Part shown: piece after piece, positions 3,354-34,723 of the stretch | Layout: every line of letters starts with the position of its first letter | Numbering within the stretch: position 1 is the stretch's first letter | Assembly: GCA_951813565.1 (NCBI GenBank) | Contig: OX638351.1 | Location: 4,768,001 to 4,832,000 of the forward strand | DNA from: an uncultured Poribacteria bacterium | GTDB lineage: Bacteria; Poribacteria; WGA-4E; WGA-3G | DNA: 64,000 bases | Direction: 5' to 3' | Translations under genes and position numbers: made by a program | The notes under the pieces: generated by a model | What the model was told of the DNA's origin: nothing | Databases searched by the model: none | What the model saw: the letters and a program-made list of their open reading frames with translations, nothing else

Positions 3354-3965
3354 TTAGTCTTGTGCATCCCTACTGAACGCAGTTTCAAAGCGTTGCCGCA
3401 ATATATCTGGGCTGGTATGCATATAGATAAGCGTTGCGTCTAAACTTGTGTGTCCTAATGCAATGCGTACCGATTCTAAATCGTGCGTAGCGCGATAGAG
3501 TTCTGTGCCGAAGGTATGGCGTAAATCGTGGGGGGTGAATCTTAGCCCTAACATTGCTGATGCTGCTTCCATGATTCGCTGAAAGTCTCGGGGTGCGAGG
3601 CGGTTTTTTGTGCGGAGCGTGCAAAACAGGGGACTGTCCACATCGTCTTTTTCGCCTTGTTCAGTTTTCCACATTAAGAAATCGTGGAGTGCGTCTCGGA
3701 CATCGTTGACGAGAGGAAGTCTCCTTGAAACCTTATTTTTTGCGATTTCTGACCGGACTTCTAACGTAGTAACAATGTTTCCAAATTTGAGCACATCCCC
3801 GATATTCATGCCGCATGCCTCAGCGTTTCGGAGTCCTGTTCGGAGGCAAAAGAGTACGAGCATTCTATCGCGTTCTCTATTTTTGAGTGTTTCTAAAAGG
3901 ATTCTCTGTTGTAATTCGTCGAGTACTCGGGGTTGTTGTACTTTTTTTCTTTTTGATTTCGCCAT
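3354..3965 (-). CDS. Tyrosine recombinase, catalytic domain only (203 aa)
   Basis: TGLRNAE (R), AKNK (K), PHDLRHTF (HxxR), LGH and TLIY motifs; GGAG RBS before MAKSK. Confidence 0.92.
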   Translation of the reverse strand: MAKSKRKKVQQPRVLDELQQRILLETLKNRERDRMLVLFCLRTGLRNAEACGMNIGDVLKFGNIVTTLEVRSEIAKNKVSRRLPLVNDVRDALHDFLMWKTEQGEKDDVDSPLFCTLRTKNRLAPRDFQRIMEAASAMLGLRFTPHDLRHTFGTELYRATHDLESVRIALGHTSLDATLIYMHTSPDILRQRFETAFSRDAQD

Positions 3966-3995
3966 TTGGCTCTCCATAAAAATTTGACGATTTTG

Positions 3996-4024
3996 ATTGT
4001 ATCATTTTTCGTTTTCAGGGTCAA
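3996..4024 (-). promoter_or_regulatory. Sigma70-type promoter of the recombinase
   Basis: TTGACC-17 nt-TACAAT on the minus strand. Confidence 0.65.
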
Positions 4025-4027
4025 CAT

Positions 4028-4063
4028 TTTAATGACGTTTTGCACGTACAATACGTCATTAAA
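4028..4063. other. Putative tyrosine-recombinase core site (15-6-15 palindrome)
   Basis: TTTAATGACGTTTTG-CACGTA-CAATACGTCATTAAA; arms match at 14/15. Confidence 0.6.
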
Positions 4064-4488
4064 TGCCTGTACAGTTACATTTCGTATTCTGTTATTTCTA
4101 TTTTCCAACCGTTACCTGTTACAAATTTTTTTGATCTAACCCGCCGACAAAAATGTTGCATTTGCACTCGCAATGGTGTATGCTAATTAAAAATAATTTT
4201 TTCACCCGTTTGTTCCATTTTTTAATTTCATATAACCTCGTCAAAAATTTGGTGTGTTTTCTTATCCCGCACATTTTCATGTCTATCTTATTTCTGTACA
4301 GGTAACACCTTAAATATATTTGTGCCAATTCGTTCCATTTAACAGTTTATGTTTCCCATGTGGGATATACGTTTAATTAAGGTCCGTCTGTCAATGTTAA
4401 TTTTTCAGATTGTATTTCACAAACCATTTATACTTTATAAATCTAATTCACTTCTTCAATCCAATATTTTCGAACAGGAGGAATCGTC

Positions 4489-5502
4489 TTGAAAAAAAAG
4501 TGGCGTCTTCTTATCCCTATTTTTCTTACATGCCTAATAATTATAGAAACCACCCCCGCAGCAATTAAGGTCGGTTTAATTTACGATGTGCGCGGTCGAG
4601 GTGATCTCTCTTTTTGTGACGCTGCATACACAGGTGCTAAAAAAGCTGCTGATAAATGGGATATTAAACTTACCGAGGTTAATCCCGGACAAAGCACCGA
4701 TACGGAAATAACATTGCGCCGTCTCGCAAAATTGAAATACGATCTCATCATCGGTGTCGGTTTCCTTTTTAGAGAACCGATGAACCGTGTTGCAGTTGAT
4801 TATCCAAATGTCAACTTCGCACTGATTGATGCTGAAGCTGAACCTGACAATGTGGCATCACTTATTTATAAGGCGCATGAGGGGACGTTCCTCGCTGGTG
4901 TCATCGCAGCATTAAAAACAGATACAAAAAAGGTGGGGTTTGTCGGCGGTATGAAGATTCCACTCGTTGAAGCATTTGAAATCGGATTTGCGGCTGGCAT
5001 AAAAGCAACTAACCCAGAGATTGAACTTCTTGTCAATTATGTTGGCGTTACCCCGCAAGCTTTTGATGACCCGGCAAAAGGAAAAGAATTAGCACTCGCA
5101 CAATATAATAAAGGGGTAGATATTATTATTGCAGCTGCTGGGGCAAGCGGATTAGGTGCGCTTGAAGCAGCGAAACAGACAAACAAATATATTATTTGGG
5201 TGGATTCAAATGGGAACGGTTTAATTCCGGGTCAGGTACTCACAAGTATTATTAAAGGTGTAGAATTGTCTGTTTATCAGATGATAGAAAATGTTGTGTC
5301 CGGAACTTTCACAGGTGGGCTAAAGAATTATGGTTTAAAAGAGGGTGGTATAGAATATATTGTTGATGAAGACAACAAAACGTTGTTATCTGAAGATATT
5401 TTGAAAAAGGTTGAGGAATTTAAGGCAAAGATTATTGCAGAAGAAATTGTGGTGCCGCATCTGCGTTCGCAAACCAAGTCAACCGAGAAAAAGAGGAAAT
5501 AA
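4489..5502 (+). CDS. BMP family ABC transporter substrate-binding protein
   Basis: GRGDLSF, YKAHEGTFLAG, FDDPAKGKELA, AAAGASGLG motifs. Confidence 0.9.
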   Translation: MKKKWRLLIPIFLTCLIIIETTPAAIKVGLIYDVRGRGDLSFCDAAYTGAKKAADKWDIKLTEVNPGQSTDTEITLRRLAKLKYDLIIGVGFLFREPMNRVAVDYPNVNFALIDAEAEPDNVASLIYKAHEGTFLAGVIAALKTDTKKVGFVGGMKIPLVEAFEIGFAAGIKATNPEIELLVNYVGVTPQAFDDPAKGKELALAQYNKGVDIIIAAAGASGLGALEAAKQTNKYIIWVDSNGNGLIPGQVLTSIIKGVELSVYQMIENVVSGTFTGGLKNYGLKEGGIEYIVDEDNKTLLSEDILKKVEEFKAKIIAEEIVVPHLRSQTKSTEKKRK

Positions 5503-27316: not shown

Positions 27317-28689
27317 TTAGTCACAAAGATCACACGTATGTGAAGGTTCACTACATTTGTGGTGGGCGGTCGTCCATGTTGGACAATAAGGTGTGACGTC
27401 CCCGCAATCTTTCCACGTCCCACCACACCATTTGCATGTCTTAGTTCGGTGAAAATCCACCTGCGATTGCACAGTGGTATCATAGGTATGCCCATACGCA
27501 CACGTCATATACTGCGACTGAGGTTCGGGATACTGGTGCATATGAGACTGACACGCATAGTAGCCCCCAACGGTACAAGTATTTCCGTTCGCATCGGTTA
27601 CATAGCAGTAAGTGTAAGAATGATCTGAACCATCACACACATAGTGACCAGAGTAGCCACAACCCGCAGCAGAATGATCCCCCGATTGCCACGTCTCATG
27701 AGAACCGCACATGTGGTAGGACGGCGCAGGCGTTGGTTCGGACGTTGGTTCTTGGAATTCATTTTGTGTCGTCTCTTCCGTGCTGTCATCATCGTCATCA
27801 GAATGCTTCGTTTCCCAGTTTATCCAGTCAGACCAATTATGATCTTTCTTGGGTCCAACACACCGCCTAAAACCATCTCCGCAAGTGTTGGTCACACCCG
27901 ATCCGTTTGTAAAGTCTCTGGTGCAGCTGCGCACTCTATGCCTATCATTTGCCGCTGTATCACAGGTGTAGTAGGCAATCCCATCCCCCGAAATAAGCGT
28001 TCTTATAGCCGTAAGCGTCGACTTCTTCGCCACAGACCTCGCGATGCGTATAGAAAGCCTCATGCGGTGTGCCATAAGACACGTTACACACAGTCTTACC
28101 CGCAGCGTGGTTACTCCGACACAAAAATGATGGCAAACTATCACGACACGTCTTCGTGTCTTTAGAAGGCACGAAATGATTGGTGTTAGATGGGGACGCA
28201 GCATCATGGTGCTGGGCATAATGCTTATTGACAGTCTTTTCAGCATACGCATGTGCACTATAATACACAGAAACCATCCGATAAAATAGGTCTATCGCTC
28301 TTCACATTAGATAACTCATCACTATACAAATCCATTAGACTCTTATTCGCATAGTAGGACCTCATTTCTGATTCAAGTCTACCGTCTAATCCACCCGTTA
28401 AAGCCCAAAAACCTGTACCCATCGCTTCTATAAGAAAGTTGGGAGCCGTTTTTCGACGGTTCTCATCTAACATCGTTGCCCATTTGGCACTTGCCCTGTC
28501 TACAAGATCCCACGCTGAATTCACATCAACTTCTTGCTGAATGACTTGACCTTCCGTTGCGATCAAATCGAGCACAGCATTAATGGGGATTATGTCATCA
28601 ATGGGCGTCGCAAAGGACGAAACGGTGCAGAAACTGAAAATAGATAGACAAATAACGTAAAATCCGATCATTAAAATATTTTTTCGCAT
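27317..28689 (-). pseudogene. Secreted Cys/His-rich protein split over three frames (two apparent frameshifts)
   Basis: Signal-peptide ORF 28258-28689 continues into 27960-28277 and then the Cys/His-rich part of 27317-28258; shifts near 28290 and 27988. Confidence 0.65.
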
Positions 28690-28698
28690 AATATCCTC

Positions 28699-29439
28699 CT
28701 ATTTAGGTAAAAGCGTTTTTGAGGCAAATCCTTCGGGATCTATGATGAGCCCTTCCGTGACTCGCGTCCATAATAACCTGCTTAAATCATTTATCCGCGC
28801 TAACTTCCACCTGAACTGTTTGTATTCCTCACTCGGAGGCACCCTATCTTTATATGTGAACGCATCACTTCGCTTTGATAACTCACGACCCTTCTCATGA
28901 ATTGCCTTGTACCACGCCTCACTATCCCGAAATGCTTTTTGGCAGATCGGGTTGGTCGTGTCGTCAATGCTGTCATAGTATGTTATCAGATATGTGAAGC
29001 GTGCAATTGCTGCTGCCTCTGTGTCGTCCGGTGGGAATGGCGGTATCCATTTCGCGCTCCAGTGTCCACGTTCTTTGGCTTGCAAACGGAGTGCTTCCAC
29101 AGGATGTTTCTCTAAAAGTTCCTTGTGGTAGGTTAACGGACCAGTATATGTTTGCGGCACTAGCGCAGGTTGCGTTGTAGGCGCCTCTTGCCACTCATCA
29201 GGTGCGTCAATCGGCACTTCATGGAAATGGTCATCATGCGGCACCCACTTTTTGCCCGGTTCGGCAGGCCGTAGGTTATTTTCTGCAAGGGGGTTACGCT
29301 TTTCTTCAAGCATTTTCTCGTCCTGTGCAAGCTGTTCTTTGAGCTGCGCGACTTGTGACCACTGATAGTAGATAAAGCCACCAGCAGCAATCAGGATTAT
29401 AATGAGGGCTGCGATGCCCCAATACATTTTGCGGTTCAT
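28699..29439 (-). CDS. Hypothetical single-pass membrane protein with HDDHFH motif
   Basis: N-terminal TM helix, coiled coil, GKKWVPHDDHFHEVP; AGGAGG RBS. Confidence 0.85.
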   Translation of the reverse strand: MNRKMYWGIAALIIILIAAGGFIYYQWSQVAQLKEQLAQDEKMLEEKRNPLAENNLRPAEPGKKWVPHDDHFHEVPIDAPDEWQEAPTTQPALVPQTYTGPLTYHKELLEKHPVEALRLQAKERGHWSAKWIPPFPPDDTEAAAIARFTYLITYYDSIDDTTNPICQKAFRDSEAWYKAIHEKGRELSKRSDAFTYKDRVPPSEEYKQFRWKLARINDLSRLLWTRVTEGLIIDPEGFASKTLLPK

Positions 29440-29697
29440 CTAACGATCCTCCTGTCTAAGATTCTTGTTATCCCTGCTGTTCGTTGTGTCCAGTGTGCAG
29501 GGCTGTCTCGGATTTGGACAAATCAAGTTCGGTTTCAGGACCCCTTGTCTCGATGTACATTCGCGTTTGAATTGTTCATCGCAAGCAGACGTATTTATCT
29601 GTGTGGCATCTATTGTGCCAAACAGCAAGAAACCGCTTCCGATGATGAATGCGAAAGTAAGAATGGAGAGAAGAAGGACTTTGTAGTCTCGTCTCAT
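29440..29697 (-). CDS. Small hydrophobic/secreted hypothetical protein (85 aa)
   Basis: AGAGGAGG RBS, hydrophobic N-terminus, stop abuts the next gene's start. Confidence 0.65.
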   Translation of the reverse strand: MRRDYKVLLLSILTFAFIIGSGFLLFGTIDATQINTSACDEQFKRECTSRQGVLKPNLICPNPRQPCTLDTTNSRDNKNLRQEDR

Positions 29698-29904: not shown

Positions 29905-29933
29905 TTGACACTTCAGAAGGTCTCTGTTAAAAT
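29905..29933 (+). promoter_or_regulatory. Promoter of putative small RNA
   Basis: TTGACA-17 nt-TAAAAT. Confidence 0.65.
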
Positions 29934-30090: not shown

Positions 30091-30328
30091 CAACTTTTTT
30101 GAATTTTATCAAAAAATATAATTTACAGAGCGGACGCACAGTGGGTAAATGTCCAAAAACGCCAAATGTCAAATGCGCATGCTGCGTTGATTCCCTCCAA
30201 CAAGAGAAAAGAGTATTCATGTCAAAAACTTTACACACTCTTCCAATCGCAATCATTGCTGAATCTCTGACTTTGTGTTATAATTAAACCGAGATGACAG
30301 AAAAGATTATAGACATCAGGAGAAAGGG

Positions 30329-31489
30329 ATGACAGATAAAAAAGAAAACGGACATCGCGGCTTACCTATTTGCACGCTCGGTGCAACAGGACACGGGAAA
30401 ACGACATTGACAGCGGCGATAGCAAAGGTCGTTGCAAGAATAGGGTCAATCCGTTCAAACATCGGAAATCAATTTGAACAACAAGTGCCTTTTCACCATC
30501 CTATCCGCGAAGGGGTTAGTATTACCTATCGTGCAATTGATTACGAAACCAGCGGCAAGTTCTATTCACAGGTGGACTGTGAAACACAGTTGGATATTGT
30601 CAAATTGTTGGTTAGTCGTTCATTTGCTATCCAAGGAGCAATTTGGGTGGTGGATGCTGTTGATGGTGTTACGCAAGCGTCTGAGGAACATCTTCGCATA
30701 GCGAATCAAATAAATATGCCTACAGTAATTTCCTTTCTCAATACACGAAATATAGCAAAAGACGATGAATTGATAGATATCTGTCGCCAAGAGATGCGTG
30801 ATTTACTCACTAAATATGAATGGGAAGAACAAACCAGTCCGATAATTGTCGGTGATGCCAATAAGGCTTTGAACTATAAAGGCGATCGGATCGGTTCTGA
30901 TCAGTGGAAACCAATTGTTGATCTCATATTTGCGATGAATCGGTGTATGCCAGCACCTATCAATCCTGAAAGTTTGCCGCCGATTATGCCGATCTATGAA
31001 ATTGTTGAGGAGTTGAAGGAACGTGTAACGGTGCGTGGTGAAATTGTACAAGGACATCTTGCTGTTGGACAAGCGGTAGATATTGTTGGTAAAGGCGATC
31101 GGATAAAGACAAAGTGTCTTAGCATTAAAGAGAACGAGGTGAGTGTTGAGTCTGAACCGGATTGGTTGTCTGTTGGACAGGTGCTGTGTCCACCGAAGAC
31201 TATAAAGGCGCATTCTGAATTTACTGCTCTCATCTATCTGCTTACACAAGAAGAGAGCGGCACACATATCCCACTTATTGAGAATGATAAACCTGAAATA
31301 CACTTATGGGGTATTGATATACCATCGCGTTTACAACTTCCACCAGATTTATCAATTGTTACACCCGGCGCGAATGCCCATGTTTCATTTGTTCTTGAAT
31401 TACCGCTTGCAATGGAAGTCGGCACAACATTTGAGGTGAAGAAAATGGGATCACGGATAGGACTCGGTGTTGTGACTGCGGTTGTATAA
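30329..31489 (+). CDS. Divergent EF-Tu-like protein with degenerate GTPase motifs
   Basis: HGKTTLTAAI, REGVSI, YET, SPIIVGDA, YLLTQEESGTH, PLAMEVG, IGLGVVT; collinear with EF-Tu. Confidence 0.85.
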   Translation: MTDKKENGHRGLPICTLGATGHGKTTLTAAIAKVVARIGSIRSNIGNQFEQQVPFHHPIREGVSITYRAIDYETSGKFYSQVDCETQLDIVKLLVSRSFAIQGAIWVVDAVDGVTQASEEHLRIANQINMPTVISFLNTRNIAKDDELIDICRQEMRDLLTKYEWEEQTSPIIVGDANKALNYKGDRIGSDQWKPIVDLIFAMNRCMPAPINPESLPPIMPIYEIVEELKERVTVRGEIVQGHLAVGQAVDIVGKGDRIKTKCLSIKENEVSVESEPDWLSVGQVLCPPKTIKAHSEFTALIYLLTQEESGTHIPLIENDKPEIHLWGIDIPSRLQLPPDLSIVTPGANAHVSFVLELPLAMEVGTTFEVKKMGSRIGLGVVTAVV

Positions 31490-31506: not shown

Positions 31507-32214
31507 CTATCGCGCAGTGGTAATTGCATCACATAATGTGAGGTCACCAGTATACAAAGCACGCCCTATAATCGCGCCACTCGCACCGATTTCCTTCAAT
31601 GCTTCAACATCAGAAAGTGACGTCACCCCTCCTGAAGCGATAACATTTGCGGACACTGCTTTAATAATATCTGCAGTAGCGTCAACGTTAGGTCCTTTGA
31701 GCATACCGTCGCTTTTGATGTCGGTGTAAATAAGTGTTTGGACTTCAGCCATCTCCACAGCAAATTCAACTGCAGATTTTTGAGATACTTCTAACCATCC
31801 GTGTGTTGCGACCATACCGTCTCTCGCGTCAATACCTACAGCAATACGTTCCCCATATTTTTCACAGGCTTGTTTCACTAAACTCGGTTGCTTAAGTGCT
31901 GCAGTGCCTAAAATCACGCGGTGCACACCTAACGCCAAAACGGCTTCCAACTGCTCCATATCTCTTATACCGCCTCCAAGTTGAATAGGGATGTCAAGTA
32001 CATCAACCATCTCACGGACAATGTGTAGATTTGCCGATTCACCCTGAAACGCACCATCTAAATCAACAAGGTGTAAGTATTCTGCGCCTTCTGCATGCCA
32101 CCGCGTTGCCATTTCCACAGGTGAATCTGAAAAGACAGTCTCCTGTTCCGCGATTCCCTGTACCAGATTTACACACTTGCCACCACGTAGGTCTATTGCC
32201 GGTAAAATTTGCAC
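31507..32214 (-). CDS. hisA: ProFAR isomerase (histidine biosynthesis)
   Basis: ILPAIDLRGGKCV, LHLVDLDGA, QLGGGIRD, YTDI..DGML.GPN, IASGGV. Confidence 0.96.
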   Translation of the reverse strand: MQILPAIDLRGGKCVNLVQGIAEQETVFSDSPVEMATRWHAEGAEYLHLVDLDGAFQGESANLHIVREMVDVLDIPIQLGGGIRDMEQLEAVLALGVHRVILGTAALKQPSLVKQACEKYGERIAVGIDARDGMVATHGWLEVSQKSAVEFAVEMAEVQTLIYTDIKSDGMLKGPNVDATADIIKAVSANVIASGGVTSLSDVEALKEIGASGAIIGRALYTGDLTLCDAITTAR

Positions 32215-33819: not shown

Positions 33820-34723
33820 TAGTTAAAATCATAAATATATTTACATTTTTCCGTTTTTGTGATAATAGTTATATTATGAGATATTCACAAGACGGACGAA
33901 AACGCGTTCTTGATTTCATAGCAGATGGTAATAGTAAAGCAGAAACTTCTCGCAGATTTCAAGTTTCACGCCGTTGTATCTATAACTGGTTAGACGCAGC
34001 CGACCCTTTTACTTACGAAAAACCGGGGCCTCGTAAACCTTATCGGCTTGACCCAGAAGCACTCGCTGAACATGTCAAAGAGTTCCCAGACAGCACGCAG
34101 AAAGAACGCGCTGCACATTTTGGCGTGTCGCAGCGTTGTATCTGTTATCATCTGAAAAAGATCGGATACACACGTAAAAAAAGACATTCACCTACAAGGA
34201 ACAATGCGCTGTAAAACAGGATATCTATCGCGCTCAGCTTCAGATGGCACTTCAAAACGGAAAAATACCTGTTTTTGTTGATGAAAGCGGTTTTACTACA
34301 GAAAGTGTTCGGCAGTATGCTTATGCGCCGAAAGGAGTTTGCGTTACGGATAAAATCTCAAGTAATCGGTATAGAAGCACGACGCTCATTGCTGCGCAAA
34401 TCCAGGGGCGTTTTACAGCACCTGTGCTTTTTGAAGGTGCTTGTGATACGCTTGCCTTCAATGCGTGGCTTGAGAATGTGCTGTGTCCACTACTTGACGC
34501 ATCGCATGTTGTCATATTGGATAATGCGTCTTTCCATAAAAGCCAGCAAACAGAGGCATTGATTACTGCTTCCGGTGCGAGTTTACTTTTTTTACCTCCG
34601 TATTCGCCTCAACTTAATCCTATTGAAAGAGATTTTGCGAACATAAAGCGCAAATGGGAATACAATGCCGAAGCGTCAATTGACGAAATCATAAAAATGT
34701 CCAAGTAATTATGGTTTCCACTA
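33820..34723 (+). mobile_element. IS630 family insertion sequence
   Basis: TA flanks, imperfect TIRs, HTH orfA + DDE orfB. Confidence 0.9.
33876..34708 (+). CDS. IS630 transposase (orfA 33876-34214, orfB to 34708; probable -1 frameshift)
   Basis: MRYSQDGRKRV HTH; VDESGF, LDNASFH, LPPYSPQLNPIE; A7 run in CGTAAAAAAAGAC. Confidence 0.88.

Follow-up and report, generated by a model that had tools for sequence, protein, structure and literature searches.

The question raised by this locus is what a second, strongly divergent gene for elongation factor Tu (EF-Tu) does in a bacterium that also carries an ordinary one. The gene lies in a stretch of 64,000 nucleotides from an uncultured Poribacteria bacterium (GenBank assembly GCA_951813565.1, contig OX638351.1, positions 4,768,001 to 4,832,000, forward strand), here called the window. 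An intact open reading frame (ORF) at 30329-31489 on the plus strand runs from ATG to TAA and encodes a 386-amino acid (aa) paralog derived from EF-Tu. A first-pass annotation, made from the nucleotides alone, had proposed a maintained pseudo-GTPase with a new role, possibly an RNA- or tRNA-binding scaffold or a decoy for toxins and antibiotics aimed at EF-Tu. The reading we lean towards is a non-switching binding protein in the shape of EF-Tu·GDP, which has abandoned aminoacyl-tRNA delivery, probably still binds nucleotide phosphate, and acts via helix D and the surfaces of domains II and III. Confidence in any named partner is much lower.

Sequence and predicted structure of the paralog

As the first-pass annotation had it, the window protein is collinear with EF-Tu across all three domains. 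The best match among solved structures is EF-Tu 6gfu (query residues 11-385, E 6e-62), and the NCBIfam EF-Tu models cover residues 9-386, although at only 220-228 bits versus cut-offs of 449-522. With the equivalog model TIGR00485 the score is 219.6 bits (213.8 bits in the genome search) versus a cut-off of 522.4. The canonical tuf of the same genome scores 717.4 bits with this model and adjoins an EF-G-like frame elsewhere on the single 5.43-Mb contig; the paralog shares ~31% identity with the EF-Tu of its own genome. In Pfam the window protein is matched by PF00009 GTP_EFTU (69.6 bits, gathering cut-off 26.5, 3e-19) and PF03143 GTP_EFTU_D3 (50.3 bits, gathering cut-off 27, 3e-13), and the same search gave no match to GTP_EFTU_D2 (PF03144). 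With PF00009 and PF03143 above their gathering cut-offs, the protein is inside the translation-GTPase superfamily. Its curated score and four defining features in its sequence place it outside the EF-Tu equivalog.

The 159 rows of clade A, the family of the window protein, were mapped to E. coli numbering via the annotated E. coli tuf. G18, G23, K24, D80 and N135 are present in all of them, and position 25 is T in 158 rows and S in one. The elements of a P-loop nucleoside triphosphatase (NTPase), i.e., Walker A (GATGHGKT in the window protein), the Mg-ligand Thr/Ser and a Walker B-type Asp, are therefore all present. No row has T at position 61 (G in 121, S in 31 and in the window protein) or G at position 83 (T in 140 and in the window protein, S in 12); we take these two positions to be the gamma-phosphate sensors and H84 to be the catalytic His of EF-Tu. 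Position 84 varies (H, Y, N, D, Q), with His in 127 rows and Gln in only four, the window genome included. Loss of the catalytic His, as first annotated, thus holds for the window genome but is not a trait of the family.

The guanine-recognition motifs G4 NKxD and G5 SAL read NTRN and DAN in the window protein. K136 is T in 132 of the rows and S173 is D in 153 (the window G5 is GDANKA, that of EF-Tu GSALKA). Position 138 varies among G, N, D, E and S: G is found in 65 rows, N in 53, D in 16 and E in 10, so that G/N/S account for 128 and D/E for 26. Sequence and alignment confirm the first-pass readings GATGHGKT, DCETQLD and NTRN. The word "dismantled" used for these motifs suits T61/G83, NKxD and SAL but not G1, which is still a Walker A of the form GxxxxGK[ST].

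A further set of changes concerns tRNA. We take H66, E215, T228 and residues 260-273 to form the aminoacyl/A76 pocket, and the T-stem and antibiotic-resistance positions are presumed in the same way. In clade A the pocket residues are replaced (H66 by A or S, E215 by Y or H, T228 by R), and the equivalent of E. coli 260-273 is absent in 151-154 rows, leaving domain II ~20 residues shorter, in agreement with the shortening noticed at first. Q329 is changed to D or E, T338 is P in 104 rows, A375 is E in 156, E378 is K in all 159 and T382 is R in 124. For the RNA- or tRNA-binding scaffold of the first-pass annotation these changes speak both ways: the residues of the canonical aminoacyl pocket and of the T-stem contacts have been lost, yet the remodelled face of domains II and III is highly constrained. 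Helix D is kept, with E144 in 158 rows, L145 and E152 in all 159, and I in place of L148 in 156. Helix D is a contact for the C-terminal domain of L7/L12, by analogy with the EF-Tu:EF-Ts complex, and an L148A change has an effect, according to passages of PMC5770553.

Judged by these residues, the protein would be a pseudo-GTPase, in which switch and catalytic residues are gone and the fold is kept and under selection. The term applies to T61 and G83, which are never present, and to the eroded NKxD and SAL; with Walker A, T25, D80 and N135 invariant, phosphate or nucleotide binding is probably kept.

Variation of another kind is seen in domain II and in charge. The members of family f3 (L031-L034, L038-L040) have a variable, acidic, low-complexity insertion of ~10-30 residues exactly at the site of the domain II deletion in other clade A members, and the paralog of genome G108 (L041) has separate insertions of 17 and 10 aa in domain II. 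The paralog is acidic, with a median net charge of -17. The canonical Poribacteria EF-Tu (14 tuf loci) is unusually acidic, with a median net charge of -32, compared with -16 for E. coli EF-Tu, and the difference lies mostly in the G domain.

Structures were predicted with AlphaFold2, using a 63-row family alignment for the paralog and, as a control by the same method, a 44-row alignment for the canonical EF-Tu of the same genome. The paralog model has the three-domain EF-Tu fold (pLDDT 91.9, pTM 0.89). The region equivalent to switch I is confidently modelled as a beta hairpin, with strands at 55-60 and 63-74 and a pLDDT of 91-94 over residues 51-80. The best Foldseek matches are GDP-form or nucleotide-free open EF-Tu (TMq 0.85-0.90). 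With VIA-align the model superposes on GDP forms over ~370 residues at Z 42-46 and a root-mean-square deviation (rmsd) of 2.1-2.5 A; scores to EF-Tu:EF-Ts complexes are lower (Z 34-35), and the fit to the GTP-analogue form 2c78 is poor (Z 30.6, rmsd 7.8 A). The control is modelled closed, with TMq 0.91 to 1exm, 1eft and 1ttt and 0.53-0.55 to GDP forms, and has switches I and II at low confidence. Since the canonical EF-Tu folds closed, the open shape of the paralog is no habit of the method. The predicted open, GDP-like shape would fit the loss of both gamma-phosphate sensors.

Distribution, selection and order of decay

In a search of 5.8 billion proteins, 120 relatives among the matches listed have 70-100% identity at 98-100% coverage, and those named to a taxon are Candidatus Poribacteria. 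Orthologs are found in 152 of 176 Poribacteria species genomes (E <= 1e-68). They are present in 111 of 112 genomes of the window genome's family (f1), 11 of 11 in f2, 28 of 29 in f3 and 2 of 7 in f4, and in none of the 17 genomes of families f5-f11, all of which are outside the order of the window genome. The seven misses within f1-f4 are in genomes that are 80-94% complete; three of them belong to genus g12 (91% complete), where a true loss is likely. A canonical tuf accompanies the paralog in every genome checked for it.

Among the matches listed, no ortholog has an internal stop, with identity down to 44%. For 39 orthologs (173 of 741 pairs, with 0.05 < dS < 1.5), the median ratio of nonsynonymous to synonymous substitution rates (dN/dS, NG86) is 0.106, and the values span 0.057-0.232. 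By domain, in 98 pairs with 0.2 < dS < 1.2, it is 0.141 for the G domain, 0.046 for domain II and 0.103 for domain III. Constraint on the paralog is thus strongest in the shortened domain II. The word "maintained" in the first-pass annotation finds strong support in these figures and in a gene tree that follows the genome families.

That the gene is a decaying tuf duplicate or an annotation artefact without function has next to no likelihood. The degenerate GTPase motifs might suggest decay, as might a rate of change that a rough sum of branch lengths, in a tree of both genes, puts at ~4 times the rate of canonical tuf. Against this stand the intact orthologs, the dN/dS values, none of which is near 1, the conserved ribosome-binding site and promoter element, and the confidently predicted fold. 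The decaying-duplicate explanation is refuted by the conservation data, barring an assembly artefact common to all genomes.

In a library of 1.84 billion representatives, only two clusters rise above the level of ordinary EF-Tu, namely P0122 of clade A at 440 bits and P0123 at 260 bits; the next match has 180 bits. A search for longer or fused forms gave five matches at E <= 1e-30, all canonical-type and 27-30% identical, and none of the paralog family, and an atlas search for look-alikes returned ordinary EF-Tu/EF1A clusters only. Among the proteins searched, this lineage-wide descendant of EF-Tu, which is inherited vertically and maintained by selection, occurs in Poribacteria only. No published description of a Poribacteria EF-Tu-like paralog was found in a literature search, supplements apart; passages of one paper on Poribacteria and elongation factor Tu speak of ordinary EF-Tu only. 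Peptides of Poribacteria are plentiful in a 2026 proteome of a sponge holobiont (10.64898/2026.10.20.760564).

P0123 and 13 relatives (P0272-P0284, 54-84% identical to P0123, three of them named Candidatus Poribacteria) form a sister group, clade B, which has 35-38% identity to the window protein. It is found in two of the 176 genomes, of families f9 and f10 (73% and 79% complete), with matches at ~1501-2691 in loci L057 and L067 and at 420-1655 in L068. A canonical tuf (714 bits) is also present in one of these genomes. In clade B, GHxGHGKT, NKxD, SA, E215/D216/F218 and the full length of the domain II region are retained, and T61 (P in 9 of 9 rows) and G83 (N, D or T) are already gone. Common to clades A and B is a signature of C15, N319, D320, W327 (from R333), K371 and K372 (from E378).

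An IQ-TREE phylogeny was made from 75 rows, i.e., 26 of clade A, 9 of clade B, 14 Poribacteria canonical EF-Tu and 26 other EF-Tu-like representatives; all rows are of 380-415 aa, and every row within this length range was kept. Clades A and B together form one side of a branch with 100 SH-aLRT, in what is a quick tree, midpoint-rooted only and with many long-branched outgroup representatives. The stem of clade A has 1.06 changes per site, and branching inside clade A follows the genome families. It should be noted that BLAST scores of clades A and B to the 14 Poribacteria canonical EF-Tus are no higher than those to 106 other EF-Tus, and both a duplication within Poribacteria and an acquisition are candidate origins.

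Within clade A, G4 is NK[AS]E in f3, NQ[TS][DE] in f2, NKAD and NEVD in the two members of f4, and NTRN, NTGG or NIHN in f1. Because clade B lacks T61/G83 and keeps G4 and G5, and families f2-f4 keep a partial G4, the decay appears to have gone in steps: by the time of the A/B split the gamma-phosphate sensors and the face of domain III had changed, and the loss of G4, G5 and the aminoacyl pocket followed within clade A. Clade B, which shares the loss of T61/G83 and the signature residues and coexists with canonical tuf, but has G1, G4, G5 and domain II intact, is an intermediate stage of the same decay.

Proposed function and its alternatives

Under the reading we lean towards, the paralog would be neither a GTP-driven switch nor an aminoacyl-tRNA carrier any longer, and would be fixed in the open shape that EF-Tu has with GDP. 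The intact P-loop probably still holds a nucleotide phosphate with Mg, given the invariance of Walker A, T25, D80 and N135, and base specificity may be relaxed or lost in the window genome's family. Binding would probably take place through three surfaces: helix D, the truncated and constrained domain II, and the remodelled face of domain III. The preserved helix D would correspond to the docking helix of EF-Tu for EF-Ts and L7/L12, and the candidate partners are EF-Ts, the ribosomal stalk or factor site, or an RNA.

A specific form of this proposal, which we consider doubtful, makes the paralog a permanent EF-Tu·GDP mimic. Helix D would dock on EF-Ts or the L7/L12 stalk and domain II on the ribosomal factor site, and the P-loop would let the nucleotide pool gate the docking, so that the protein would act as a translation brake or parking factor in slow-growing sponge symbionts. 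We know of no bacterial EF-Tu relative that regulates translation as such a factor. Pfam Host_attach (PF10116), which we take to be the accession tied to a Balon-type hibernation partner, was not found in the window's own genome (95% complete), PF10116 being the only baeRF family searched. The EF-Ts of Poribacteria is a short form of 197 aa (G000 C1:2709879-2710469; L069 1501-2094), and all 31 genomes sampled have it, at 57-100% identity.

Several points weigh against a non-switching binding protein. H84 is kept in 127 of the 159 clade A rows and in 9 of 9 clade B rows, and D or E persists at position 138 in 26 of the clade A rows (f2-f4), so that some members may still turn over a nucleotide. 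No de-duplication was applied to the clade A rows, and most of them share 70% identity or more with one another. The invariance of the P-loop could be structural, without ligand binding, and a conformation predicted by AlphaFold does not disprove closure. The acidity of the protein gives general RNA binding no support. In addition, the paralog differs from EF-Tu at several positions that we take to be contacts with EF-Ts (H19 to A, D21 to G, Q114 to D/E, E348 to S).

An NTPase with altered base specificity (e.g., for ATP) should also be considered, one still cycling via the P-loop, D80 and, mostly, His84 and driving a new process instead of tRNA delivery. The invariant Walker A, T25, D80 and N135 and the frequent H84 would serve such an enzyme, and the G4 of aligned f3 members (NK[AS]E) and of f2 (NQT[DE] or NQSE) resembles the NxxE of YchF, an ATP-using relative of the GTPases. 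SpoIVA, a TRAFAC GTPase turned ATPase, is a precedent (PMC7952092). We regard this explanation as unlikely, since positions 84 and 138 vary and no single catalytic or base-reading solution is therefore conserved, both gamma-phosphate sensors are missing from every row, and the paralog model is confidently GDP-shaped. The constraint on domains II and III, the strongest in the protein, could instead be that of a specialised carrier of an unusual tRNA or acyl-tRNA (compare SelB, aSelBL and mitochondrial EF-Tu2), with RNA bound without a GTP cycle; the former T-stem face of domain III bears the invariant W327, K371 and K372, and E378 has become K. A precedent is aSelBL, described with a degraded G domain and with tRNA-binding conservation retained (PMC3037878). 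Such a carrier is nevertheless quite unlikely here: the aminoacyl/A76 pocket is removed by the deletion of 260-273 and the replacement of H66, E215 and T228, the genome seems to have a separate, putative SelB-like frame of 662 aa, and the predicted open shape is without the cleft for the acceptor end. In the open form of EF-Tu there is no such cleft between domains I and II.

The decoy for EF-Tu-targeting toxins or antibiotics, suggested by the first-pass annotation, is disfavoured and in our judgement very unlikely, also when it is widened to a guard and to phage proteins. Tse6, CdiA toxins and several antibiotics are known to act on EF-Tu or with its help, and complexes of this kind are among the structural matches to the paralog model (4zv4, 7vmc, 1d8t). 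Sponge symbionts live under heavy pressure from phages and competitors. A decoy would have to copy surfaces of EF-Tu, and it is these surfaces that have changed, with only ~31% identity to the EF-Tu of the same genome; the sites for kirromycin, GE2270A and pulvomycin, the Lit cleavage site and the Doc target, as we take them to be placed, are all substituted or deleted in the paralog. PADLOC matched none of seven proteins (the paralog, the clade B member P0123 and five window neighbours), no defence genes are conserved beside the paralog in 21 loci compared, and selection is steadily purifying, with no sign of an arms race.

The paralog has counterparts of several kinds. The nearest in architecture is canonical EF-Tu (TIGR00485) in its open GDP state (1tui, 1efc, 6mij, 1d8t), with the same length, Walker A, D80, N135 and key helix D residues, and Z 42-46. 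Unlike it, the paralog scores 220 bits versus 522, is without T61/G83, has an eroded NKxD and SAL, a deleted pocket and replaced T-stem contacts, has a domain II unseen by Pfam, and is encoded by a second gene outside a str-type operon, beside a normal tuf. Ski7, of the eukaryotic eEF1A/Hbs1 family, is a paralog of the translation GTPases and serves as an adaptor for binding, not as a hydrolysing switch. It differs from the Poribacteria paralog in being eukaryotic and of independent origin, with the exosome and the Ski complex as partners. It is entered as a subfamily in a 2015 survey of translational GTPases (PMC4342817), passages of which name actEF-Tu as the sole bacterial EF-Tu-like subfamily clearly distinct from EF-Tu. 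The actEF-Tu, or EF-Tu3, of some Actinomycetales is also a second, divergent tuf-type gene, but is described in these passages as a condition-specific, antibiotic-resistant, working elongation factor, and the Poribacteria protein is without the switch and pocket residues needed for that. The closest described analogue in kind is the divergent archaeal SelB-like aSelBL (Atkinson, Hauryliuk and Tenson 2011, PMC3037878). It too is spread across a lineage as a paralog of a GTPase for tRNA delivery, its GTPase domain is severely disrupted and its function is left open. However, aSelBL is archaeal and SelB-derived and is reported to keep the conservation for ribosome and aminoacyl-tRNA binding, whereas the Poribacteria protein is bacterial and EF-Tu-derived, with the pocket removed.

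Few bacterial proteins are as conserved or as abundant as EF-Tu. At this locus a copy of it minus the switch and the tRNA pocket has been kept by a whole bacterial lineage under strong purifying selection, with the P-loop, helix D and a constrained domain II retained. Clade B and the clade A families with NKxD/E form a natural series of intermediates from which the successive steps in the dismantling of a GTPase switch can be read. Should EF-Ts, the stalk or the ribosome prove to be the partner, the paralog would represent a way of controlling translation that is new, in uncultured sponge symbionts; with any other partner, it would be a clear bacterial example of an essential translation factor that has been recruited to a different function.

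Gene features and neighbourhood

The features of the gene are collected in Table 1. In 23 of 39 orthologous loci, the 90 nt that precede the start codon contain an element of the form TGnTA[TAC]AAT. The TGTTATAAT element at 30276-30284 was not reported by the consensus promoter scan, because it has no -35 match. The intact ORF and AGGAG ribosome-binding site of the first-pass annotation are both confirmed. A consensus terminator scan detected none 3′ of the gene, which looks monocistronic.

Table 1. Coordinates of the paralog gene, its expression signals and the encoded motifs and domains in the window
Feature	Coordinates	Strand	Evidence
Extended -10 promoter element TGTTATAAT, ~45 nt 5′ of the start codon	30276..30284	+	pattern match; promoter action putative
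Shine-Dalgarno AGGAG, 6 nt 5′ of ATG	30318..30322	+	SD-like core at most 20 nt from the start in 35/39 orthologs
Coding sequence of the 386-aa EF-Tu-derived paralog, stop codon included	30329..31489	+	orthologs intact in 152/176 Poribacteria genomes; median dN/dS 0.106
G domain, residues ~1-205	30329..30943	+	Pfam GTP_EFTU over residues 14-198; dN/dS 0.141
P-loop (G1) GATGHGKT, residues 18-25	30380-30403	+	sequence and alignment
Switch II DCETQLD, residues 83-89	from 30575 (DCETQ 30575-30589)	+	sequence and alignment
G4 NTRN, residues 138-141	30740-30751	+	sequence and alignment
Helix D, residues ~146-162 of the window protein	within G domain	+	conserved residues
Shortened domain II, residues ~206-290, without the E. 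coli 260-273 equivalent	30944..31198	+	no Pfam GTP_EFTU_D2 match; dN/dS 0.046
Domain III, residues 291-386; family-specific invariant H313, N319, D320, W327, K371, K372	31199..31486	+	Pfam GTP_EFTU_D3 over 291-385; dN/dS 0.103

The gap upstream of the paralog gene is 630 bp in the window, far longer than in sister genomes (~155 bp in L043). Inside it are a perfect sigma-70 consensus on the minus strand at 30090-30063 (TTGACA, 16 nt, TATAAT; 12/12) and, on the plus strand at 29905-29933, an 11/12 sigma-70 match with a TG extension.

The location outside a ribosomal operon, as first annotated, is borne out. The gene stands between unannotated minus-strand ORFs and a convergent hisA, with an ABC permease also in the flank, and is apart from the canonical tuf and EF-G-like frame and outside any str-type operon. 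In a comparison of 21 loci (the window and 20 others) for a conserved partner, only the paralog is common to all, and hisA comes next, in 9 of 21. By their Pfam names the neighbours have unrelated roles in metabolism or housekeeping, and no neighbour is conserved from family to family.

A histidine-biosynthesis gene is convergent to the paralog in two lineages, namely hisA (31507-32214 in the window, minus strand) in the nine loci, which are of family f1, and hisD in three loci of f3, genus g7 (L033, L034 and L040, ~3616-4920). This may be a remnant of an ancestral position, or chance. At 33876-34708 on the plus strand of the window, two adjacent ORFs of 112 and 154 aa look like the halves of an IS630/Tc1-type transposase (helix-turn-helix, then DDE), a putative label given by eye. 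On the minus strand at 27317-29697 are four ORFs (313, 143, 246 and 85 aa) with no match in Pfam or PADLOC, the 313-aa frame being rich in Cys and His. Other f1 genomes hold at this place a cytidylyltransferase-like gene and a gene of 456-505 aa, and the four ORFs look like a lineage-specific insertion.

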